Assembly: GCA_963724325.1 (NCBI GenBank)
Contig: CAVRUH010000005.1
Span: 1-64,000, forward strand
DNA length: 64,000 bases
DNA from: Waddliaceae bacterium
Lineage (GTDB): Bacteria > Chlamydiota > Chlamydiia > Chlamydiales > Waddliaceae
Direction of reading: 5' to 3'
Shown here: positions 1 through 41,222 of the stretch, in pieces
Numbering within the stretch: position 1 is the first letter of the stretch
Layout: each line of letters starts with the position of its first letter
Made by a program: the position numbers and the translations under genes
The notes under the pieces: model-generated
Told to the model about the DNA's origin: nothing
The model's input: only the letters and a program-made list of their open reading frames with translations
The model's database searches: none

Positions 1-173
1 CGCCTCGAAGGAGAGGTGAAAAAGCTCCAAAGGGAAAAGAGAAACTGCTTCAGTACGAAATTGACAGCTTCGAAAACCCCATTCGCCTCTATGGAATTAG
101 CTCATCAGCCAGAATTCAGTCACATGAAATACCCAATCATTAAAGATGTAATTATCATCAAATATGTAGTTGA
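1..173 (+). CDS. ftsL: 3' part of FtsL-like cell division protein (CT271-like), truncated by window edge, apparent indels
   Basis: Stitched translation ...LQYEIDSFENPIRL.ELAHQPEFSHMKYP...; position directly upstream of ftsI-murE-amiA, as in Chlamydia. Confidence 0.55.
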
Positions 174-189
174 TAATAATCTCTAAAAG

Positions 190-2177
190 CTCTCACTGGA
201 TACTACTATTTATCACTTGTCTTATTGATGTTTACCCTTTTTTTATATTGATATTTCAGTTTTACAAAATCCAAATCGTGAAGAAGAAAAATGAATTAAT
301 TTAGGCCAACCACAACATTTTTTTGAGGTGACCGAGCCCTTTCTACGTGGCAAATTTCTATCCAATACCTCCATCAAAAAAGGACATCCCGAAGATCCAC
401 AGTATTTTGTTCTCGATATCCAAAAATACCATCTGTATATCGACCCTATGTCCATTCCTGAAAAACATCAGGAGGTCATTTCTAAGCAACTCATTAATAG
501 GTTGGATTTAACACCGGAAGCAGCGGAAAAACTCAAGGCTCAATTTAACTTCGAAAGCCGCAGCCGTAAACTGGCAATGTGGCTCGACAGCGAAACCAAA
601 GAAAACATACAGGCTTGGTGGGTCCACTTTGCTTCTAAAAATAAAATTCCGCGCAATGCAGTCTATTTTGTCAGCGACTATCAACGTTCATACCCATTCG
701 GAAAGCTTTTAGGGCAAGTATTGCACACTGTGCAAAATAATAAAGATGAAATTACAAAACAAGCAATCCCCACAGGGGGTCTAGAATTGCAACTGAATTC
801 ATATTTGACTGGTAAACTTGGAAAAAGGGTCTTGAAACGATCTCCGCGACATTCTTTTGAAACCGGAACAATGATCGAACCTCCTGAAAACGGAGCTGAC
901 ATCTACCTTACTATCAATCACGTCCTTCAAACAATCGCAGAAGAGGAGATCGAAAAAGGAGTCATCAAATGCAAGGCAAAATGCGGTTGGGCAGTGATGA
1001 TGGACCCCAAAACTGGGAGATACTCGCGATGGCGCAGTATCCTTTTTTCAATCCAAACCACTATGCAGAATACTTTAATGATCCAGTAAAAATCGAACAC
1101 ACTCGCCTCAAAGCTGTCACGGATGCAAATGAACCCGGATTGATGATGAAAGCGATTACAGTGGCTATTGCTCTGAAAGCTAATAAGGTTCTAAAAGCAA
1201 AAGGGGAGAAGCCCTTTTTTGATCCAAATGAAAAAATGCCTACAGCTGACGGCAGCTTCCCTGGAAGGCGAAAACCCATTAAAGATACGAGTTTCCATAA
1301 GTATCTTAACATGAACATGGGGGTTAAACGCTCGAGCAATATTTATATGGCAAGGCTTGTACAGAGAATTATCGTCGTTTAGGGAACGATTGGTATCGCA
1401 ATGAGCTCGAGGAAACCTTCGGATTCGGAAAAAGGACCAATGTAGAACTGCCTTCAGAAAGCAATGGTGTTTTGCCTAAACCCGGAAAAAAAGCACCCGA
1501 ATGGACAATTGGAATGGTCAAAGCCAACTCCCTTTTCAATGGCTATGGGACATAATATTCAAGTTACCAGCCTGCAGATGTTAAAAGCCGTCGGCATTAT
1601 TGCCAATGGAGGATATGCAATTCAACCGACAATTATCAGAAAAATTGTCAAAACAGCTCCAGATGGGCATCAGGATATTCTTCTTGACAATACGCAAGCG
1701 AGATCATTCGAACGGATTTTAGATGAAGATGTAACTCGGGATGTAATTAATGCCATGAAATATGTGACCAAAAAGGGTGGAGGTGGTGCTAGGGCAGAAA
1801 TATGGGGTTACACAGAAGCAGGCAAATCCGGAACCGCAGAAAAAATCGTGAATGGAACCTACTCAAAAACACTAAACGTATCTAGTTTTATTGGTTTTAC
1901 TCCTGCAAAAGACCCAGTATTCATTCTCTTGGTCTGTATGGATGAACCCGAATTCAAATACATTCCGGGAGTCGGAAAGAATCAAATGGCAAGCACTTGC
2001 GCTGCGCCTGTATTCCGCGAAATTGCACGACGTTCTTTGGATTTTCTAGGGATCACTCCAGATGATCCGCACGGATACCCAAAAACCGATCCCCGTTATG
2101 ATGAACAGAAAGCAGATTGGATAACCGAAAGCATACAGTTGCAAGAAATGTATGAAAAATGGAATAAAGCAGTATAA
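190..2177 (+). CDS. ftsI: Penicillin-binding protein 3 (FtsI), split by several frameshifts; start approximate
   Basis: ORFs 328-1089, 969-1382 and 1464-2177 join into a class B PBP: RSYPFG, GGLE, EPG..K region, SSN and KSGTAEK motifs. Confidence 0.85.
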
Positions 2178-2195
2178 AGGAATAATCAGGAACTT

Positions 2196-3687
2196 ATGAA
2201 ATTAAAAAAAATATTAAAAGATATTCCCACACTCCATTAAAGGATCCAAAGAGATCGAGATCACCGGAATATGCGCCAATTCCAAATTGGTCGCCCCAGG
2301 AAATCTGTTCGTGGCCAGGAAAGGAAAATTGGATGATGGCTCCAAATATATTCCCGAGGCTATTCAGCAGGGGCCGTGGCCATCCTGACAGATATTTACG
2401 ATCCCTCTTTCAAAGACACTCCCAAATCATCCACCCTGATGGGAACGCTATCGAAGGCCTTCTCGCAGCGGTTTATTAACAATTTCCTCAGACGAAACTT
2501 GTTCATGGTGGGCATCACGGGCACCAACGGAAAAACAACCGCCTCATACTTATCAAACATGTTTGGACGATCTCAAGGGCCCGTGCGGGCTTATCGGGAC
2601 CATCGAATATCATTATTGGGTAAGCACCGATACCAGGCCCGAGAACCACGCCGGATGTGGCAGAAATCACAGATGCTGCGGGAAATGATCAACAGGGGTG
2701 TCTGTCCGCAGTCATGGAAGTGACTTCTCATGGCCTGGACCAGAACCGGGTCCAGCATGTGGATTTCAATGCCGCAGTCTACACCAACCTTTCTCCGACC
2801 ATCTGGATTATCACACTCCAATGCAAAACTATTGTCTGGCAAAAAATCGGCTGTTTGCAAAATTCCGTGACCCCCGAGTCGAAAGAAGAAAATTAAAAAT
2901 AATCCCAATAATAGCCATCGTCAATACGACGCCCGTGGAATAGACAGATCATTTCCGGCTGTCCCGCTCCCTTACTGACTTACGGAATTCAGGAAAATGC
3001 AGACTTCAGGGCAACAGACGTAAAACTCACAAACGAATCGGGCCAACATTTCAACCTGAACTATAAAGATCAAATCACAACCTTAAAGTGCCTCTTATCG
3101 GACGTTATAATGTATATAACGGCCTTAGCTGCCATAGGTGTAGGCCTGTCCTACGCGATCCGCTCCAAGATCCATTTGGACATCTTTCGATCCTTTCACG
3201 TTCCAGGCCGCCTCGAACCCGTCCCTAATACCTAGGGCTGACAATTTATGTCGACTTCGCACATATCCGTGACGCTCTATACAACGTTCTCAATTGTCTT
3301 AAAGAGTTCAAAAAAGGGAAGATCATCACCTTATTTGGCTGCGGTGGCGACCGCGATGCTGTCAAGCGTCCGAAAATGGCTGAAATTGTTGAACAATTTT
3401 CGGATGCTACGATTGTTACTACAGATAACCCCCGTTCCGAAAATCCAGAATTGATCATTAACGCTATTGTAAAGGGGTTTAAAAATCCAAATAACTATTA
3501 CGTTGAAATAGATCGACGAAAAGCTATTGAAAGCGCTATCACTATGGCTGAGCCGGATGATATTGTTTTGCTTGCAGGTCGTGGACATGAACCTTATCAA
3601 ACATTTGCGTTTTATACACTAGAGTTCGATGATCGGAAGGTAGCAAGCGAAATATGCGAACAACTTCAGCAATCAGGTAAGAAATGA
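2196..3687 (+). CDS. murE: UDP-MurNAc-tripeptide ligase MurE, multiply frameshifted
   Basis: GITGTNGKTT, VMEVTSHGLDQNRV, DHLDYH, FGCGGDRD, DNPRSE and LAGRGHE motifs spread over different frames. Confidence 0.88.
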
Positions 3688-4355
3688 ATCTTAAAAATAT
3701 TATATTGCACGCACTTATTATTTTATTCACTGCTTCATGCTCGCCAGGAAGGCATGGCACGCCTCTTCCTCCAATGAAAGCGAGCACTCCAACGAAGACT
3801 CGCAGCACAAAAATATTTGTCGATCCAGGCCATGGAGGAAAAGATGATGGTGCCAAATCTTCTAGCGGACAACAATGTTTTGAAAAAAGTCTAAATTTAA
3901 CTACCGCTATGAATTTGGAAAGGTATCTGAAGGATTATGGGTATGAGACTGTGTTAACTCGAGGGGATGACACTTTTGTCCCTCTAAGATTGCGTTCAGC
4001 ATTTGCGAATGGAAACCGGGCCAATCTTTTTGTCAGCGTCCACTATAATGCTTCAGAAAACCCTAAAGCTGAGGGTATCGAAGTTTACTATTACGATAGC
4101 AACGATTCTCGTGCTGCTGAATCAAAAAAATTGGCTCTCCTAGTGATGAATCGGCTCGGAACGAACACGAAGCTAAAACCTAGAGGTGTCAAGCATGGAA
4201 ACCTAGCTGTGATCCGTGATGCAAAAATGCCAGCCATCCTCGTCGAAGGAGGATTCATGACCAACAGCACTGAAATAGAGAAAATCAAAGAACCCGAGCA
4301 TATGAGGCTTATCGCCCAAAGCATTGCCCAGGGTATCAATGATTACCTGAAATAA
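3684..4355 (+). CDS. amiA: N-acetylmuramoyl-L-alanine amidase (Amidase_3), lipoprotein-like N-terminus
   Basis: VDPGHGGKDDGA, EKSLNL, FVSVHYNA, AILVEGGFMTN. Confidence 0.93.
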   Translation: MNLKNIILHALIILFTASCSPGRHGTPLPPMKASTPTKTRSTKIFVDPGHGGKDDGAKSSSGQQCFEKSLNLTTAMNLERYLKDYGYETVLTRGDDTFVPLRLRSAFANGNRANLFVSVHYNASENPKAEGIEVYYYDSNDSRAAESKKLALLVMNRLGTNTKLKPRGVKHGNLAVIRDAKMPAILVEGGFMTNSTEIEKIKEPEHMRLIAQSIAQGINDYLK

Positions 4356-4356
4356 A

Positions 4357-4429
4357 CGTCCTCGGCGCGAATCGAACGCGCGACCTGTTGCTTAGGAGGC
4401 AACCGCTCTATCCCCTGAGCTACGAGGAC
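4357..4429 (-). tRNA. tRNA-Arg (anticodon CCT)
   Basis: Reverse complement GTCCTCGTAGCTCAGGGGATAGAGCGGTTGCCTCCTAAGCAACAGGTCGCGCGTTCGATTCGCGCCGAGGACG folds as a cloverleaf with GTTCGA T-loop; no encoded CCA. Confidence 0.95.
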
Positions 4430-5547
4430 AAATTCCTCTATACGATAATGGATGTACTTGTTTTTAACAATGGTTTTTTCATCTTTTTCCTTCTTATCCT
4501 GCTTATCATGCCGCGCCTCGCGATCATGCATATCCTGTTATTTTTTCCCAGAAAATGAACAGGATATGCATGATCGCGAGGCGCGGCATGATAAGCAGGA
4601 TAAGAAGGAAGCTTTATATTATCTTGATTACAAATCTATCCCCTGAGCTACGAGGACAAATTCCTCTATACGATAATGGATGTACTTGTCTTTAACAATG
4701 GTTTTTTCATCTTTTTCCTTCTTATCCTTCTTATCATGCCGCGCCTCGCGATCATGCATATCCTGTTATTTTTTCCCAGAAAATGAACAGGATATGCATG
4801 ATCGCGAGGCGCGGCATGATAAGAAGGATAAGAAGGAAGCTTTATATTATCTTGATTACAAATCTATCCCCTGAGCTACGAGGACAAATTCCTCTATACG
4901 ATAATGGATGTACTTGTCTTTAACAATGGTTTTTTCATCTTTTTCCTTCTTATCCTTCTTATCATGCCGCGCCTCGCGATCATGCATATCCTGTTATTTT
5001 TTCCCAGAAAATGAACAGGATATGCATGATCGCGAGGCGCGGCATGATAAGAAGGATAAGAAGGAAGCTTTATATTATCTTGATTACAAATCTATCCCCT
5101 GAGCTACGAGGACAAATTCCTCTATACGATAATGGATGTACTTGTTTTTAACAATGGTTTTTTCATCTTTTTCCTTCTTATCCTGCTTATCATGCCGCGC
5201 CTCGCGATCATGCATATCCTGTTATTTTTTCCCAGAAAATGAACAGGATATGCATGATCGCGAGGCGCGGCATGATAAGAAGGATAAGAAGGAAGCTTTA
5301 TATTATCTTGATTACAAATCTATCCCCTGAGCTACGAGGACAAATTCCTCTATACGATAATGGATGTACTTGTTTTTAACAATGGTTTTTTCATCTTTTT
5401 CCTTCTTATCCTTCTTATCATGCCGCGCCTCGCGATCATGCATATCCTGTTATTTTTTCCCAGAAAATGAACAGGATATGCATGATCGCGAGGCGCGGCA
5501 TGATAAGAAGGATAAGAAGGAAGCTTTATATTATCTTGATTACAAAT
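4407..5547. repeat. Tandem array of five 228-bp units (starts 4407, 4635, 4863, 5091, 5319); each has the tRNA 5' 23 nt, its promoter and a 53-bp inverted repeat with 18-nt loop
   Basis: Direct comparison of units; three variable positions; first IR arms 4487-4539 and 4558-4610. Confidence 0.97.
4442..4470 (-). promoter_or_regulatory. Putative sigma66 promoter of tRNA-Arg (repeated in each 228-bp unit)
   Basis: TTGTTA-17 bp-TATCGT, 12 nt upstream of the tRNA 5' end. Confidence 0.55.
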
Positions 5548-5588
5548 GTGAAATCAGTCATGATTTTATATAAATAGAGGGAGGCTTT

Positions 5589-7007
5589 ATGTCGGATGCT
5601 GATATTGGTTTAATTGGTCTTGCCGTAATGGGGCAAAATCTGGTGCTAAATATGAACGACCATGGATTCACAGTGGTTGTGTTCAACCGCACCGTTGCAA
5701 AGGTAGATGAATTCCTTGATGGATCTGCTAAGGGAACCAAAGTCATCGGAACACATTCCCTCGAGCAATTTATCAAAACCCTAAAGCGCCCTAGAAAAGT
5801 TATGCTCATGGTCAAAGCCGGAGAGGCCGTTGACGAATTCATCGATATGCTGCTTCCATTTCTTTCCCCCGGCGATGTTATTATTGACGGCGGAAACAGC
5901 CTCTACACCGATACCAACCGCAGAGTTAAATCACTAAAAGAAAAAAATATTATTTTTGTCGGCACAGGAATTTCAGGGGGAGAAGAAGGGGCTCGCCATG
6001 GACCCTCTATCATGCCTGGAGGAAATCCCGATGGATGGCCTCTAATCAAAGAAATATTCCAAGCAATTGCCGCAAAAGTGGAATCAGGAGAACCTTGCTG
6101 CGAATGGGTTGGGGAAAACGGTGCCGGTCACTACGTGAAAATGGTCCACAACGGCATTGAATACGGAGACATGCAACTCATTTGTGAAGCCTATCAACTC
6201 TTAAAACAGGGTCTAGGACTCAACGCACAAGAACTTCATGACGTGTTTACTCAATGGAATAAAGGATCCCTCAATAGCTACCTGATCGAAATCACTGGTC
6301 GCATTTTTGCCGTCAAAGACACTGATGGAAAACCACTCGTAGATAAAATTCTCGACGTCGCCGGTCAAAAAGGCACTGGAAAATGGACAGCTATCGATGC
6401 TCTGGACATGGGAATCCCTCTCACACTAATCGGCGAATCAGTCTTTTGCCGCTGTTTGTCATCACTAAAGGATGAAAGAGTCGAAGCAAGCAAGATCATT
6501 CATGGAATTCAATCCAAATTTGAGGGAGATCGTGAAAAATTCATCGAAGCGATACGCCAAGCCCTATATGCATCGAAAATCATCAGTTACGCTCAAGGAT
6601 TCATGATGATGCGTCAAGCTTCCGATGATTATAAATGGAACATCAATTTTGGCGGCGTTGCCATGATGTGGCGCGAAGGTTGCATTATCCGAAGTGGCTT
6701 CCTAGGTAAAATTAAAGAGGCCTATGATAAAAATTCCAAACTGAAAAATCTTCTCCTCGATCCCTATTTCAGCAACGAAATTCAAGAAGCTCAATCGGGA
6801 TGGCGCCAAGTGGTCTCCAAAGCTGTTGAAATGGGAGTACCTGCCCCTTGCTTGAGTTCTGCTATATCCTTCTTTGATGGATACCGCAGTGCCGTCCTGC
6901 CCGCGAATCTTCTTCAGGCTCAACGGGACTTCTTCGGCGCCCACACCTATGAGCGCATTGATTCCCCCCGTGGTAAATTCTTCCATACAAGTTGGTCAGA
7001 AGGATGA
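5589..7007 (+). CDS. gnd: 6-phosphogluconate dehydrogenase, decarboxylating
   Basis: IGLIGLAVMGQNL, ISGGEEGARHGPS, YVKMVHNGIEYGDMQ, QAQRDFFGAHTY. Confidence 0.98.
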   Translation: MSDADIGLIGLAVMGQNLVLNMNDHGFTVVVFNRTVAKVDEFLDGSAKGTKVIGTHSLEQFIKTLKRPRKVMLMVKAGEAVDEFIDMLLPFLSPGDVIIDGGNSLYTDTNRRVKSLKEKNIIFVGTGISGGEEGARHGPSIMPGGNPDGWPLIKEIFQAIAAKVESGEPCCEWVGENGAGHYVKMVHNGIEYGDMQLICEAYQLLKQGLGLNAQELHDVFTQWNKGSLNSYLIEITGRIFAVKDTDGKPLVDKILDVAGQKGTGKWTAIDALDMGIPLTLIGESVFCRCLSSLKDERVEASKIIHGIQSKFEGDREKFIEAIRQALYASKIISYAQGFMMMRQASDDYKWNINFGGVAMMWREGCIIRSGFLGKIKEAYDKNSKLKNLLLDPYFSNEIQEAQSGWRQVVSKAVEMGVPAPCLSSAISFFDGYRSAVLPANLLQAQRDFFGAHTYERIDSPRGKFFHTSWSEG

Positions 7008-8134
7008 AACGGATCTCTATTCTAGGTTCTACGGGCTCTATTGGAGTTAATACTTTAAATGTCATCCGGCATTTAAAGTTACAAATTGCTGCCCTTGCTG
7101 CGCACTCAAATATCGATCTTCTTGAACAACAAGCCAAAGAATTTTCTCCGAAATTAATCGCGGTATATGACGAATCAAAGGCTTTAGAACTGAAACAAAG
7201 ACTGCCGCATATCGAAGTGGTAGGCGGCATTGAGGGTCTAAAAGCTGTTGCAACCCATTCCGATGCTAATTTTGTCGTTTCAGCTATTACCGGCACACTA
7301 GGACTCATTCCCACTGTTGCCGCTATCGAAGCCAATAAAGACATCGGTCTCGCCAATAAAGAAGCACTGGTATCCGGCGGAGCCCTCGTAACAGCCTTGG
7401 CTGCGAAGCATGGTGTTAAGCTTATTCCTATTGATAGCGAACATAGTGCGATCTTCCAATGTCTGAATGGAGAAAAAAAAGAATCGATCAAAAGGCTAAT
7501 TTTAACAGCCTCCGGAGGACCTTTTCGTTCGTTTTCTCAAGAACAATTGGAACAAATAACTGTCGACCAAGCTCTTCGGCACCCCACCTGGACAATGGGT
7601 CCTAAGATAACAATCGATTCTTCGACATTAATGAACAAAGGTCTTGAAGTGATAGAGGCTCGCTGGTTATTCGACATGCCGGTAGATAAAATCGATGTGA
7701 TTATCCACCCGCAAAGCATCATTCATAGCATGGTCGAATATGTAGACAATTCCATTATTGCCCAAATGGGATACACCGACATGAAAATTCCCATTCAATA
7801 CGCATTAACCTACCCAGACAGATTTCCCGGTCTTTTTGAATTATTTGATTTTACGAAGCATTCTACACTTCAGTTTTTTGCTCCCGACCTAGCAAGATTT
7901 CGCTGCCTCGGCTTGGCATTTGAATCTCTTAAAGTCGGGGGAACATTGCCATGCTACATGAATGCAGCCAACGAAGTTTTAGTTAGTCGATTCATCAATC
8001 GCCAATTATCCTGGCAATCCATTGGTCAAAAACTTGAACTTCTAATGACCAAACACTCATCTCAACCCATTACATCTCTAGATTCTATCCTCTATGCAGA
8101 TGCATTAGCACGAGAACAAGCAAAAATAGCGTAA
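7004..8134 (+). CDS. dxr: 1-deoxy-D-xylulose 5-phosphate reductoisomerase
   Basis: ILGSTGSIG, LANKE, PIDSEHSAIFQ, HPTWTMGPKITIDSSTLMNKGLE; ATGA overlap with gnd. Confidence 0.98.
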   Translation: MKRISILGSTGSIGVNTLNVIRHLKLQIAALAAHSNIDLLEQQAKEFSPKLIAVYDESKALELKQRLPHIEVVGGIEGLKAVATHSDANFVVSAITGTLGLIPTVAAIEANKDIGLANKEALVSGGALVTALAAKHGVKLIPIDSEHSAIFQCLNGEKKESIKRLILTASGGPFRSFSQEQLEQITVDQALRHPTWTMGPKITIDSSTLMNKGLEVIEARWLFDMPVDKIDVIIHPQSIIHSMVEYVDNSIIAQMGYTDMKIPIQYALTYPDRFPGLFELFDFTKHSTLQFFAPDLARFRCLGLAFESLKVGGTLPCYMNAANEVLVSRFINRQLSWQSIGQKLELLMTKHSSQPITSLDSILYADALAREQAKIA

Positions 8135-8204
8135 AAAATAATAGCGCTTTTACTTGGTATTGTGGCATAATCAATTCGACAAAAGGTAACATGCAAAGGG
8201 TAAA

Positions 8205-10154
8205 ATGATCTCTACCATAATATACACAATATTTTCCATTCTAGGCTTAAGCTTCCTTATATTCATCCATGAACTCGGCCATTATTGGATGGCACGCCGT
8301 GTTGGCATGCGTGTGGAGGTATTCTCTATCGGTTTTGGACATCCCATCTATTCATGGCAACGAAATGGCGTCAATTGGAAATTAGGCTGGCTCCTCTTTG
8401 GCGGATACGTCAAAATTGCAGGCATGAGCGGAGAAAAAGACGAAGATCCATACTCTATCCCCGACGGTTTCTTTGGTAAAAAACCCTTTGACCGCATCAA
8501 AGTTGCCTTTATGGGCCCCTTTGTGAATCTTCTTTTTGCTATTGTCGTCTTCTCAGGACTTTGGCTTATGGGCGGCAGAGAAAAAAACTTCAGTGAATAT
8601 ACTCACATCATCGGTTGGGTCGATCCTAAATCAGAACTATATCTTCAAGGAATCCGTCCAGGGGATGAAATCCTCTCATATGATAATAGAAAATATCGCG
8701 ATAGTACAGACCATCTCTTTGCCCCGCTTATTGCAAAAGATGAAATCACTGTTAAAGGCAATAAGGTCAATTATGCAACTGGAGAAAAAACTCCTTTTGA
8801 AGTCAAGGTAAAGCCATATCATAATCCACGCTTTTTCGATAAAAAAATCAAAACCGCAGGCATCTTAGAATCTGCTCGGTATGTAATTTACAATCGCCTT
8901 CCAAATGGCAAAGATAACCCAATCCCTGCTAATTCTCCAATTGCCGATAGCGGCTTACAATATGGCGATCGTGTTTTGTGGATTGATGGGGAAGTAATTT
9001 TTTCTCGTGAACAAGTCGATCATCTTCTAAATGATAACAGAATTCTACTTACCGTCAAAAGGGGCGATAAAATATTTCTTCGACGCATCCCTCGTGTACA
9101 TGTGATAGAGTTAAAACCCGATGCAGCATTTCGTGAGGAATTGGTTGATTGGCAGCATGAAGCCGATTTAAACGGAGTTAAATTTGATGATCTTTATGCC
9201 ATTCCTTATACGCTGACACATGATTGTGCTGTGGAACAGGCCTTAAAATTTATTGATAAGGATAAAGAAGATGAAGTTTTTCAAGAACATCCTTTTTCCG
9301 ATTTGGAATTTCCTTTACAACCTGGAGACCATATCATAGCTGTCCAAGGTGTTCCAGTCGATCATTCGTATCAGATTCTTTCACAAGTTCAACAAAAGCA
9401 CGTTAATGTGATTGTTGAAAGAGATCCTTCCGCTATATCACTTATACCTTGGAACGCTTTGGAAGGCAGCTTTATTCAAAAATCTGATTGGGAGAATTTA
9501 GGAAAGATTTCACGTTATATTGGAACAAGCAAGCAAATATCCGATTTAGGCACTTTACATTTGCTCCATCCGATAACTCCTATAAAAAGAACAGAAATAG
9601 CAGGCACGCCTGAAGAAAAAGCCTGGATGACAACAGAACTGCAAGAAACAAGACGCAAAATTGAGCAGATTGAAGATTCTGAAAAGCGAGCTTTTGAGCT
9701 TTCCACATTTGATCATGTAATTAATAGTGTAGTTTTAGGCATCCCTAATTTACAAGATCGACATGTGACATTTAATCCAAGGCCGATTGAATTATTTGAT
9801 CATTTGGCTACCCAAATATATCGGACGCTTTATGCAATGCTGACAGGAACTTTGAGTCCAGAGCATCTTGCAGGCCCGGTTGGAATTGTTCGCATTGTTC
9901 AAGGGTCTTCGATGGTTAGTTTGAAGGAGGCATTGTTTTGGCTTGGTGCTATTAGTTTGAATTTGGGAGTTTTGAATCTCCTCCCAGTGCCAATGTTGGA
10001 TGGTGGGACGATTATTTTCTGTTTATTTGAGATGGTCACAGGCTATCGAATAAAGCCCAAAATAATGGAAGCTATTATCATGGTATTTGCCACTCTCCTG
10101 GTTATCTTCTTCCTTTTCGTCACCTACAATGATATTCTTAGAATTTTCAATTAG
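8205..10154 (+). CDS. rseP: RIP metalloprotease RseP (M50, PDZ-containing)
   Basis: HELGH, GGYVKI, NLLPVPMLDGG; follows dxr. Confidence 0.95.
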   Translation: MISTIIYTIFSILGLSFLIFIHELGHYWMARRVGMRVEVFSIGFGHPIYSWQRNGVNWKLGWLLFGGYVKIAGMSGEKDEDPYSIPDGFFGKKPFDRIKVAFMGPFVNLLFAIVVFSGLWLMGGREKNFSEYTHIIGWVDPKSELYLQGIRPGDEILSYDNRKYRDSTDHLFAPLIAKDEITVKGNKVNYATGEKTPFEVKVKPYHNPRFFDKKIKTAGILESARYVIYNRLPNGKDNPIPANSPIADSGLQYGDRVLWIDGEVIFSREQVDHLLNDNRILLTVKRGDKIFLRRIPRVHVIELKPDAAFREELVDWQHEADLNGVKFDDLYAIPYTLTHDCAVEQALKFIDKDKEDEVFQEHPFSDLEFPLQPGDHIIAVQGVPVDHSYQILSQVQQKHVNVIVERDPSAISLIPWNALEGSFIQKSDWENLGKISRYIGTSKQISDLGTLHLLHPITPIKRTEIAGTPEEKAWMTTELQETRRKIEQIEDSEKRAFELSTFDHVINSVVLGIPNLQDRHVTFNPRPIELFDHLATQIYRTLYAMLTGTLSPEHLAGPVGIVRIVQGSSMVSLKEALFWLGAISLNLGVLNLLPVPMLDGGTIIFCLFEMVTGYRIKPKIMEAIIMVFATLLVIFFLFVTYNDILRIFN

Positions 10155-10315: not shown

Positions 10316-10406
10316 TTTACTGCTGTAGCGGTAAAATCCAGGGAAATTTGATAATTTCACTTTCACTTAATTAATTAATGTGATATTTTACTGTTATAGC
10401 GGGAAA
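10316..10406. promoter_or_regulatory. Two imperfect palindromes, probable HipB operators
   Basis: TTTACTGCTGTAGCGGTAAA (10316-10335) and TTTACTGTTATAGCGGGAAA (10387-10406) just upstream of the HTH gene. Confidence 0.6.
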
Positions 10407-10409
10407 AAT

Positions 10410-10637
10410 ATGAAGAATCACATCTTAGAGCTGGGTAAAATTATTCTGTTCCATAGGGAAAAGAGTGGATTGTCGCGCGGAGAGCTTGCAAAACTTGCAG
10501 GAGTCGGCAAAACTTTCATATTTGATGTAGAACATGGCAAAATTTCCATCAAGTTGTCTACTTTGCAACGAATTTTGGAAGTTCTAAATATTTCCCTGAC
10601 TTTTAAAAGCCCTTACATGGACGAATATTTTAAATGA
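10410..10637 (+). CDS. hipB: HTH (Xre) antitoxin/regulator, HipB-like
   Basis: REKSGLSRGELAKLAGVGKTFIFDVEHGK HTH; first gene of an overlapping 3-gene unit. Confidence 0.8.
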   Translation: MKNHILELGKIILFHREKSGLSRGELAKLAGVGKTFIFDVEHGKISIKLSTLQRILEVLNISLTFKSPYMDEYFK

Positions 10638-10945
10638 AAAAAGCAAAAGTCTTTGTTGACGGCACATATGCTGGCATTTTAGAGGAACTAGCAAGGGGGA
10701 CGCATTATCGATTCATCTATGATCCGAATTATCATGGCATGCCTGTCTCCTTACTGATGCCTTTAAGTCTTAAATCCTTTGAATATGCCTCTTTTCCTCC
10801 ATTTTTTGATGGCTTGCTCCCTGAAGGAATGCTGCTCGACGCATTGCTAAAAGGGGCAAAAATTGATGCTGATGATCTACTCAGTCAATTAATCACTGTT
10901 GGTCACGATTTGATCGGAAATGTCACTATTGAGGCTTATGAATGA
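10634..10945 (+). CDS. hipS: HipA N-terminal-domain protein (HipS-like)
   Basis: AGILEE..YRFIYD..VSLLMP..FPPFFDGLLPEG..DLIGNV. Confidence 0.8.
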   Translation: MKKAKVFVDGTYAGILEELARGTHYRFIYDPNYHGMPVSLLMPLSLKSFEYASFPPFFDGLLPEGMLLDALLKGAKIDADDLLSQLITVGHDLIGNVTIEAYE

Positions 10946-11867
10946 ATCGATGTCCTATCACTTATGAACCTTGTGGAAAGGATAAATATTCACAGAATGG
11001 TTTGAAGCTACTTTCTAAAAATTTAAAAGAAACGCTTTTGTTTCCTTATACAGCACAAGAACAGCTTAATCTTGCAGCCCAATATGCAACCAAACTTTCC
11101 ATTCAAGGAGTACAAGCCAAAATTAAGCGTAAGATTAAGCGCCTCTAAACACTGTTTTGAATTGGTTGAATCTAAAGGAACTTTCATCATTAAGCCGCCA
11201 AACCCTTTTTTTAGTGAACTACCACAAAATGAAGATCTTACTATGAGACTTGCCGCGATGATTGGTTTGGAGATTCCAATCCATGGCATGGTTTACGCGG
11301 AAGATGGGTCTTTAAGTTATTTCATAAAACGCTTTGATCGATATGGTCATTCAAAAAAACTGCCTGTTGAAGATTTTGCCCAGCTTTCTAATGCCTCAAG
11401 AAGAACGAAATATGACAGTAGCATGGAGAAATTGATTCCAATTATTGATCAGAACTGTTCTTTTCCAATGATTGAGAAACTGAAATTATTTAAAATTACA
11501 CTTTTTTTGCTTTCTAATTGGCAATGAAGACATGCATCTAAAGAATTTTTCCTTGATAAGGCGACCTGAAAAAATTGAGTTATCACCGTGCTATGACCTT
11601 ATCAATTCAAGTATTGTTTTGCACACCGGTGAAGAGCTTGCATTACCGTTAAAAGGAAAGAAAAGCAATTTGCACAAAGAACATCTAGTCGATTACTACG
11701 GTCTGGATAGATTGAAACTAAACCCAGCGGTGATAAATACTGAATTAGATCTTTTGCGAAAAATCCAACCCGAATGGTTAGACCTCATTAAAAAGAGTTT
11801 TCTCACAAAAGATCTTCAACAAAGTTATGTTGACCTTCTTAAAAAACGGTCTGAAATACTTTTTTAG
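10942..11867 (+). CDS. hipT: HipA-family kinase toxin (HipT-like), two frameshifts
   Basis: LSIQGVQ[P]KL, NEDLTMRLA, KRFDR, EDFAQL, GNEDMHLKNFS and LSPCYDL are restored by removing single extra bases near 11116 and in the T-run near 11505. Confidence 0.8.
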
Positions 11868-16000: not shown

Positions 16001-16146
16001 TGAACTGTGGCCTGCTGTCGGAGACAGCAGACCACAGTGGTCCGCTCTCTCCGAGAGCGGACGCCTGCTGTCGGAGACAGCAGACCACAGTGTCCGCTCT
16101 CTCCGAGAGCGGTCGCCGGCTGTCGGAGACAGCAGGCCACAGTTCA
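16001..16146. repeat. REP/BIME-like cluster, family 1 (three A and two B hairpins), bounded by 19-bp inverted repeats
   Basis: tgaactgtggcctgctgtc ... gacagcaggccacagttca; same hairpins as 32039-34041 in reverse orientation. Confidence 0.9.
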
Positions 16147-31957: not shown

Positions 31958-32308
31958 GGTAATAATGGTATCAGTTTTGCAATTTTGGATTCAAGTGCTC
32001 TAATAAAGAACACTTTGCGGCCTGCTGTCTCTGACATTGTGGCCTGCTGTCTCCGACAGCAGACGTCCGGCTCTCGGAGAGAGCCGGCCACAAGTGGCCT
32101 GCTGTCTCCGACAGCAGACGTCCGGCTCTCGGAGAGAGCCGGCCCAAGTGGCCTGCTGTCTCCGACAGCAGACGTCCGGCTCTCGGAGAGAGCCGGCCAC
32201 AAGTGGCCTGCTGTCTCCGACAGCAGACGTCCGGCTCTCGGAGAGAGCCGGCCACAAGTGGTCTGCTGTCTCCGACAGCAGACGTCCGGCTCTCGGAGAG
32301 AGCCGGCC

Positions 32309-33794: not shown

Positions 33795-34128
33795 GTCCGG
33801 CTCTCGGAGAGAGCCGGCCACAAGTGGTCTGCTGTCTCCGACAGCAGACGTCCGGCTCTCGGAGAGAGCCGGCCACAAGTGGTCTGCTGTCTCCGACAGC
33901 AGACGTCCGGCTCTCGGAGAGAGCCGGCCACAAGGCCTGCTGTCTCCGACAGCAGACGTCCGGCTCTCGGAGAGAGCCGGCCACAAGTGGCCTGCTGTCT
34001 CCGACAGCAGACGTCCGGCTCTCGGAGAGAGCCGGCCACAAGTGGACAGCAACCACAAATTATTTGATTGACCAATTCGATTTATTATTTTATTGTGGGA
34101 CCTATAAAAAAATGGAATCTGGTGGTAC

Positions 34129-41103: not shown

Positions 41104-41222
41104 CACTCCCTATCCTCCGTATCCTGCCGCTTGCGATCCGCACATCCTGTTAAATGCTTGTGCTTAATAAGTTAACAGGATGTGCAGGATCGCAAGCGAC
41201 AGGATACGGAGGATAGGAAGTG
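41104..41222. repeat. ~50-bp inverted repeat pair, family 2 (AGGAT-periodic), between convergent genes; may act as terminator
   Basis: Arms 41104-41153 and 41172-41222; related to arms at 4487-4610 and 63561-63703. Confidence 0.88.

Follow-up and report, generated by a model that had tools for sequence, protein, structure and literature searches.

The window analyzed here is a 64,000-nucleotide stretch of a Waddliaceae bacterium genome (positions 1 to 64,000 of contig CAVRUH010000005.1, assembly GCA_963724325.1), and it carries a tandem array directly upstream of a tRNA-Arg(CCT) gene. Tandem Repeats Finder places the array at 4407-5547, with a period of 228, 5.0 copies, 99% matches and no indels. 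It consists of a palindrome plus 80 nt and 24 nt of adjoining DNA in five tandem copies. We found that this palindrome belongs to a dispersed repeat family that is tied to genes for GxxExxY nucleases, and we think it probable that the locus is a real passenger array of a GxxExxY-linked palindrome. Judged by its sequence, the repeat is similar to the hairpin-forming doublets of repetitive extragenic palindromic (REP) sequences known as REPINs, but is tied to an enzyme unrelated to the REP-associated tyrosine transposases (RAYTs).

To place the array hairpin, we searched the genome of the window (G000; 2.37 Mb, 11 contigs, 84.6% complete) with an arm profile and identified 272 arms at 91 loci. 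Against a profile from which they were left out, all 10 arms of the array score 37 bits. Each arm is built from CAGGAT boxes about 9 nt apart, and the arm consensus has no GTAG/GTGG foot; instead, GGAT or TGAT precedes a short inner stem. An 18-nt arm pattern has 214 matches in this genome and at least one match in 46 of 301 genomes of the order, while its reversed control has one match across all 301. Full-arm matches fall mostly in records titled Chlamydiales or Parachlamydiales. Isolated doublets occur in both orientations (24 and 15), and with 150-nt margins the family makes up 1.9% of the genome.

The array is one of many. Using a period of at least 40, at least 93% matches and at least 1.9 copies as criteria, we found 56 near-perfect tandem loci in the genome, 45 of which carry one of four palindromic repeat families (assigned by motifs defined in this analysis) and 25 of which carry the array's family. 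Sister arrays also include the ends of neighboring genes in their units: a 5 x 206 bp array contains the last 36 nt of tdk and the first 37 nt of the next open reading frame (ORF), a 3 x 248 bp array the last 43 nt of menB and the first 30-34 nt of menA, and a 2.8 x 214 bp array the last 48 nt of an NTP/NDP transporter gene. Extragenic location was checked for arrays only. Another genome holds a 3.3 x 173-bp array of the same palindrome. An earlier note on this DNA had proposed that a palindromic element was amplified with its flanks, as in tandem REPIN arrays, and the flank-bearing units here and in the sister arrays support that proposal. On sequence grounds, the array's capture of 23 nt of tRNA appears to be the same event as the gene-end capture in its sisters, taking place in a tight intergenic space.

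Other features of the family were noted along the way. The window contains two further doublets in opposite orientations (41113-41213 and 63563-63701). Family arms at C1:24025, C1:440991, C7:232069 and C7:259182 of G000 are each broken at an identical position by a foreign sequence that they have in common. Many of 60 hairpin loops in the genome are 12 nt long with a central CTAG- or TTAA-like core; these loops look like the joined outer ends of two gene-type elements, and the array loop is an 18-nt variant.

Clustering the ORFs that lie beside the repeat revealed a recurring GxxExxY gene. It lies within about 300 nt of the repeat at 10 of 102 loci from metagenomes and at 4 of 108 from genomes, although two of these four are probably the same short piece. 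We then used a quick tree, solely to split the GxxExxY genes into two groups. An arm is present within 300 nt at 14 of 29 close-homolog loci, seven of which have arms on both sides pointing inward, compared to none of nine controls from the other clade (a tenth control was left out, having yielded no alignment). With a looser box count, at least three CAGGAT-type boxes occur on one side at 20 of 30 loci, G000 included, versus 0 of 9 in the other clade. Most of the control genes carry repeats of their own, which differ from the array's. In several cassettes the arms overlap both ends of the gene, in frame, and the array's arm is nearly identical to these gene-overlapping arms. Additionally, among 300 other genomes the clade is found in 17 of the 34 with at least two pattern matches versus 13 of the 266 with fewer, in a table where kin genomes are not independent and whose one-match version omits one single-match genome.

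The window's own genome encodes an intact member of this clade at G000:C1:338313-338720. It is a full member of the GxxExxY family (TIGR04256 / PF13366 PDDEXK_3). Family hairpins bracket the gene in the same orientation as those of the array, and a hairpin with about 25 nt of flank is repeated on both sides. The protein retains E33, D72, E82-x-K84 and Q96/Y100, so the PD-(D/E)xK catalytic residues are intact. An alignment-based structural model (predicted local distance difference test score of 90.9) resembles SSO0001, which we take to be a Cas4 protein, as well as LHK-Exo and lambda exonuclease, pointing to a Cas4/lambda-exonuclease-like fold. A search by sequence for a solved structural relative found none. 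The accessible part of one paper lists the function of the GxxExxY family as "Unknown" (PMC3424549), and we found no published link between the family and repeats in the literature searched, whose coverage lay outside most subscription journals. By analogy, the GxxExxY nuclease likely plays for the array's repeat the part that a RAYT plays for REP repeats. A second GxxExxY gene in this genome, from the other clade (G000:C5:248284-248640), is preceded by a different repeat; downstream of it no arm is clear.

The array itself is made up of five 228-bp units plus one shared base. Read on the minus strand, each unit runs from a hairpin through a promoter-like site to the first 23 nt of tRNA-Arg(CCT), and the intact tRNA (4430-4356) continues from the last unit only. 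ARAGORN identifies this tRNA at 4356-4430 on the minus strand, the sole CCT tRNA among the 34 of the assembly. Each unit contains a 124-nt inverted repeat, at 4487-4610 and then in steps of 228, and minus-strand folding of this repeat gives a 53-bp stem (with a z of about -20 as DNA). The duplicated tRNA piece terminates within the 3' strand of the D-stem, and the two ends of the junction have one base in common. Tandem Repeats Finder, ARAGORN and folding thus bear out the earlier description of a five-fold array of hairpin, promoter and tRNA 5' end with a D-arm junction of 1 nt microhomology. The flanking genes encode an amidase on one side and gnd and dxr on the other. The features are as follows.

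3684..4355, plus strand: N-acetylmuramoyl-L-alanine amidase gene, convergent on the tRNA
4356..4430, minus strand: intact tRNA-Arg(CCT), single copy in the assembly (ARAGORN; passes the Rfam threshold)
4407..5547, no strand: tandem array, 5 x 228 bp plus 1 shared base, with variable unit positions 56, 95 and 190
4442..4470, minus strand: native tRNA promoter candidate TTGTTA-17-TATCGT (from sequence and comparison with 33 other tRNA upstream regions)
4670-4698, 4898-4926, 5126-5154 and 5354-5382, minus strand: copies of the tRNA promoter candidate
4487..4610, no strand: hairpin 1, G:C variant; its two arms, which are inverted, belong to the CAGGAT-box palindrome family
4635..4657, 4863-4885, 5091-5113 and 5319-5341, minus strand: duplicated tRNA 5' 23 nt without the rest of the tRNA
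4715..4838, no strand: hairpin 2, T:A variant
4943..5066, no strand: hairpin 3, T:A variant
5171..5294, no strand: hairpin 4, mosaic in which G faces A (mismatch), in keeping with exchange among units
5399..5522, no strand: hairpin 5, T:A variant
5536..5564, plus strand: candidate gnd promoter TTGATT-17-CATGAT, only its -35 inside the repeated unit
5589..7007, plus strand: gnd, divergent from the tRNA

The five units differ from one another at three variable positions (56, 95 and 190), where their haplotypes are TGC, CTA, CTA, TGA and TTA. Positions 95 and 190 pair across the stem, as G:C in unit 1 and T:A in units 2, 3 and 5, leaving a G/A mismatch in unit 4. Going by the bases alone, this pattern fits genuine copies that have exchanged sequence with one another. 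In an Rfam scan of the array the tRNA alone passed the threshold, and the miRNA matches were generic hairpins below their cut-offs. We rejected a CRISPR array, as whole units are 99% identical with no unique spacers between repeats, and an island integrated at the tRNA gene, as no cargo or integrase ORF lies between the copies of the tRNA piece.

Comparison with relatives suggests how the hairpin came to the locus. The distance from the tRNA to the gnd start in relatives is 29-154 nt with no hairpin (9 of 10 loci measured; the tenth was not picked up by the search pattern). Here one unit gives 246 nt, which falls to 122 nt once the hairpin is taken out; the simplest reading is that the hairpin was inserted. 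In the sole genome of the same genus (G001), gnd lies about 12 kb from the tRNA, whose upstream region is occupied by a 2 x 145-nt repeat (L040:13890-14225) of a palindrome family other than the array's. That family has 61 matches in G001 and none in the genome of the window. These observations suggest that the site upstream of the tRNA tolerates palindrome insertions. G001 also has, between dxr and the gene after it, a GxxExxY gene of the other clade that is flanked by inverted arms of its own (L377, G001:C1:650865-651212). The equivalent site of the window (8134-8205) is only about 70 nt, making a presence/absence pair for the whole cassette.

How did the array form? The palindrome is likely a gene-less cassette derivative because its arms are those that enclose GxxExxY genes elsewhere. 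In the account we put forward, to which we give an even chance, such a derivative underwent a first duplication started by a GxxExxY nuclease cut near the hairpin, and the tRNA parts are passengers. The palindrome would have inserted between the back-to-back tRNA and gnd promoters, as the relatives without a hairpin suggest. The intact gene at G000:C1:338313-338720, given its catalytic residues and predicted fold, could supply the enzyme in trans. A break near the extruded hairpin would be repaired by re-copying the hairpin and its flanks, and a join with 0-1 nt of homology would produce the first tandem copy. Unequal exchange between 228-bp copies would then expand the array and mix its variants, a step with which the mosaic haplotypes are consistent.

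Several results weigh against this account or its parts. Half of the genomes with at least two pattern matches (17 of 34) have no close homolog of the nuclease, including G268 (132 matches, 95% complete, 210 contigs), G050, G138 and G202, and such genomes count against a strict dependence on the nuclease. Similarly, 15 of the 29 homolog loci have no arm that scores on the profile. Three further repeat families form arrays too, in one case next to a RAYT gene, and therefore flank-capturing amplification is not specific to the GxxExxY nuclease. Across four clean array junctions we found no shared motif, dinucleotide, flank length or fixed distance from the hairpin. Their microhomologies (1, 0, about 4-6 and one unscorable) are near the chance expectation of 55% zero and 28% one, as host repair alone would give. 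Finally, among contigs derived from the reads of four public DNA runs, some of 151 nt match the flanking genes exactly and none covers 4519-5610; among public sequencing runs, five DNA runs contain 12-14% of the words, and no RNA run was listed.

The random look of the junctions in sequence and spacing, and the presence of arrays at all four palindrome families of the genome, would be expected if no enzyme of the element took part. Long palindromes are obstacles to replication. A GxxExxY-linked hairpin could stall the fork, a slip or template switch with 1 nt of homology could create the first copy and host recombination could expand it. We regard this explanation as possible but unlikely: it leaves unexplained the spread of the repeat to 91 loci and the tracking of its arms with one nuclease clade, and the repetition of the hairpin and its flank on both sides of the G000 gene also speaks against it. 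A different concern is that the five-fold copy number is an artefact of assembly or consensus, and that the genome contains one unit or some other number. The array lies 4.4 kb from the contig start, the first 3.8 kb (window 1-3820) overlap the end of another contig (G000:C3:22126-25937) at 90.8% identity, and murE is frameshifted there. However, the differences fall mostly between 2100 and 3300, the contigs agree almost fully over 3300-3820 and the amidase and gnd genes are intact. Furthermore, the units have no indels between them and form four haplotypes, including a compensatory stem pair; the hairpin core variant is found nowhere else in the genome; and the family has 24 sister arrays with other periods in addition to the one in another genome. 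We therefore consider an artefact improbable. Sequence evidence from the haplotypes, from a core variant specific to this locus and from the sister arrays speaks for a real array, while its exact copy number is provisional.

The overlap region contains a candidate penicillin-binding-protein-like gene, named from its sequence, which like murE is broken into frames. These broken frames look like low-accuracy consensus rather than true pseudogenes. Farther along, window 10380-11867 contains a small helix-turn-helix gene followed by ORFs that we presume to be a HipA-type toxin-antitoxin module in pieces, a candidate assignment.

A further explanation would be an ordinary REPIN array whose RAYT (TnpA-REP) was lost or is missing from an 85%-complete assembly. 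The repeat shares many features with REPINs and bacterial interspersed mosaic elements (BIMEs): inverted REP-like arms in a long hairpin, a high dispersed copy number, both orientations and tandem units that include flanks. The doublets and flank-bearing arrays match those described for Pseudomonas fluorescens in the available text of two studies (PMC3116915, PMC3337134), and the left donor site of the array reads C|T on the plus strand. One Y1 (RAYT-like) gene is also present in the genome, but the repeats that flank it belong to a family other than the array's. Three overlapping sets of Y1 loci (61, 19 and 31) contained no Y1 gene bracketed by the array's repeat; the nearest approaches were a single weak arm, a fragment of 17 nt and a doublet lying 1.6 kb from a gene. 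No Y1 gene matched among 210 loci fetched by the repeat either. We also tried widely spaced arm pairs in G001, G163, G268 and G050 as candidates and rejected them; they enclose host genes or other repeats and no Y1 gene. The GTAG/GTGG foot, a bracketed cognate Y1 gene and C|T junctions are all lacking in this 84.6%-complete assembly. TnpA-REP cuts at C|T and requires a 3' C for joining to T, according to the accessible parts of PMC3333891 and PMC8266576, whereas the array junction reads A|T, as does the right donor. The array junctions, as read in four arrays only, thus do not appear to fit RAYT chemistry. We conclude that the RAYT explanation is disfavored and very improbable. The analogy of the earlier note to REPIN/BIME arrays does not extend to the enzyme, since the repeat is tied to GxxExxY nuclease genes and not to a Y1/RAYT transposase.

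The RAYT-like gene itself (in the region G000:C5:207304-209473) scores 79.3 bits against a cut-off of 80. Next to it, a third repeat family has arrays of about 5 x 106 and 10 x 112 bp; elsewhere the arrays of this family reach 13 x 215 bp. The window also contains tandem arrays of a second short-palindrome family at 16010-16143, 32039-32308 and 33795-34045. These have a GTGG foot and look like canonical REPs, and no cognate RAYT for them was seen in the assembly.

The earlier note had further suggested that the extra promoters change the dosage of the AGG-decoding tRNA or produce a functional chimera. Each unit does contain a complete, plausible promoter candidate. TTGTTA-17-TATCGT matches the sigma-70 consensus at 8 of 12 positions and ends 11 nt ahead of the tRNA, as do TTG-17-TAnnnT sites at the other tRNAs of the genome. 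Among the 34 tRNAs, 11 reach its score, as do 3.4% of upstream regions after shuffling, and a promoter/terminator scan tool listed nothing in the array, this site included. From its sequence, we consider the duplicated promoter plausible. The candidate gnd promoter, by comparison, is single-copy because the unit boundary cuts between its -35, inside the unit, and its -10, outside. On the minus strand an A-rich stretch and no U-tract follows the hairpin, so upstream promoters could read through into the tRNA. In equilibrium folding of the read-through RNA, which leaves out tertiary structure and co-transcriptional folding, the duplicate 5' piece takes the acceptor stem with a probability of about 0.89 (-159.9 kcal/mol, compared to -152.8 kcal/mol with the cloverleaf enforced). 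The genome contains an RNase III gene. Extra transcripts are thus modeled as by-products, with predicted read-through, acceptor-stem mispairing and a 53-bp stem offered to RNase III; chimeric RNAs are possible by-products of the array.

Could selection maintain the array, either for more tRNA-Arg(CCT) or for a functional RNA of tRNA fragment and hairpin? Tandem duplication can adapt tRNA dosage in Pseudomonas, according to the available part of PMC10954465, but the published adaptive cases duplicate whole tRNA genes. AGG makes up 12.4% of Arg codons here, and a TCT tRNA is also present. AGG can be read by a TCT tRNA through wobble. Additionally, the sister arrays have likewise taken up gene ends that are of no use, the relatives we examined have no array and the folding predicts misfolded precursors. 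Nothing points to selection on AGG decoding, and we find the suggested dosage effect or functional chimera unsupported and selection an improbable explanation. The tRNA promoter and fragment are instead likely passengers of hairpin amplification, captured because the tRNA-gnd gap is so tight that any such flank enters the tRNA.

Taken together, our results describe a REPIN-like array architecture that arises here without a detectable RAYT, with junctions that depart from RAYT chemistry, in a repeat family tied to a widespread group of nucleases whose function is listed as unknown. The available text of PMC3337134 calls the formation of tandem palindromic-repeat arrays unexplained, and a model in the accessible part of PMC3333891 invokes the RAYT enzyme. 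What this locus adds is that GxxExxY-linked palindromes give rise to arrays that take in flanking DNA and have junctions without the C|T signature of RAYTs, and GxxExxY proteins gain a concrete candidate substrate. We tentatively propose, at somewhat less than an even chance, that GxxExxY nucleases mobilize a second, RAYT-independent class of palindromic replicators, in which each clade spreads and amplifies its own gene-less hairpins with their flanks. If this is true, the locus records a five-fold multiplication of a host tRNA promoter, a route by which repeats could retune neighboring genes. The capture of the tRNA was probably incidental, yet it shows how a whole promoter can be multiplied by arrays of this kind.

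Comparison with known systems helps to define the element. Like the adaptive tRNA-gene duplications of P. fluorescens, described in the available part of PMC10954465, the array is a tandem duplication at a tRNA locus, and some of the published junctions are homology-free as well. Those cases duplicate whole tRNA genes on kb-Mb segments under selection, whereas here the unit includes only the promoter and 23 nt. The palindrome also resembles MITEs (miniature transposable elements with inverted repeats) in having gene-less units of inverted arms that look like internal deletions of a gene-bearing element. However, 39 isolated doublets revealed no target-site duplication of consistent length, on which ground we rejected the MITE class, and we found no DDE transposase with these ends beside the repeat.

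The closest parallel is with the REPIN clusters of P. fluorescens SBW25 and the BIMEs of Escherichia coli, as portrayed in the accessible portions of PMC3116915, PMC3337134, PMC3333891 and PMC8266576. Both systems contain hundreds of inverted hairpin doublets in both orientations with variable spacers, near-identical tandem units that include flanks, and a single-copy gene bracketed by its cognate repeat, with each gene clade having a repeat of its own. Tandem REPINs with flanking sequences are the commonest higher-order form in SBW25 (PMC3116915, in the text available), where they reach up to five copies and the accessible part of PMC3337134 offered no mechanism at the time. The array differs in that its junction is not C|T and its flank extends into a tRNA gene. 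Its arms are CAGGAT boxes without a GTAG foot and are sometimes in frame with gene ends, and the gene bracketed by the repeat encodes a PD-(D/E)xK nuclease of the GxxExxY family rather than an HUH Y1 transposase.
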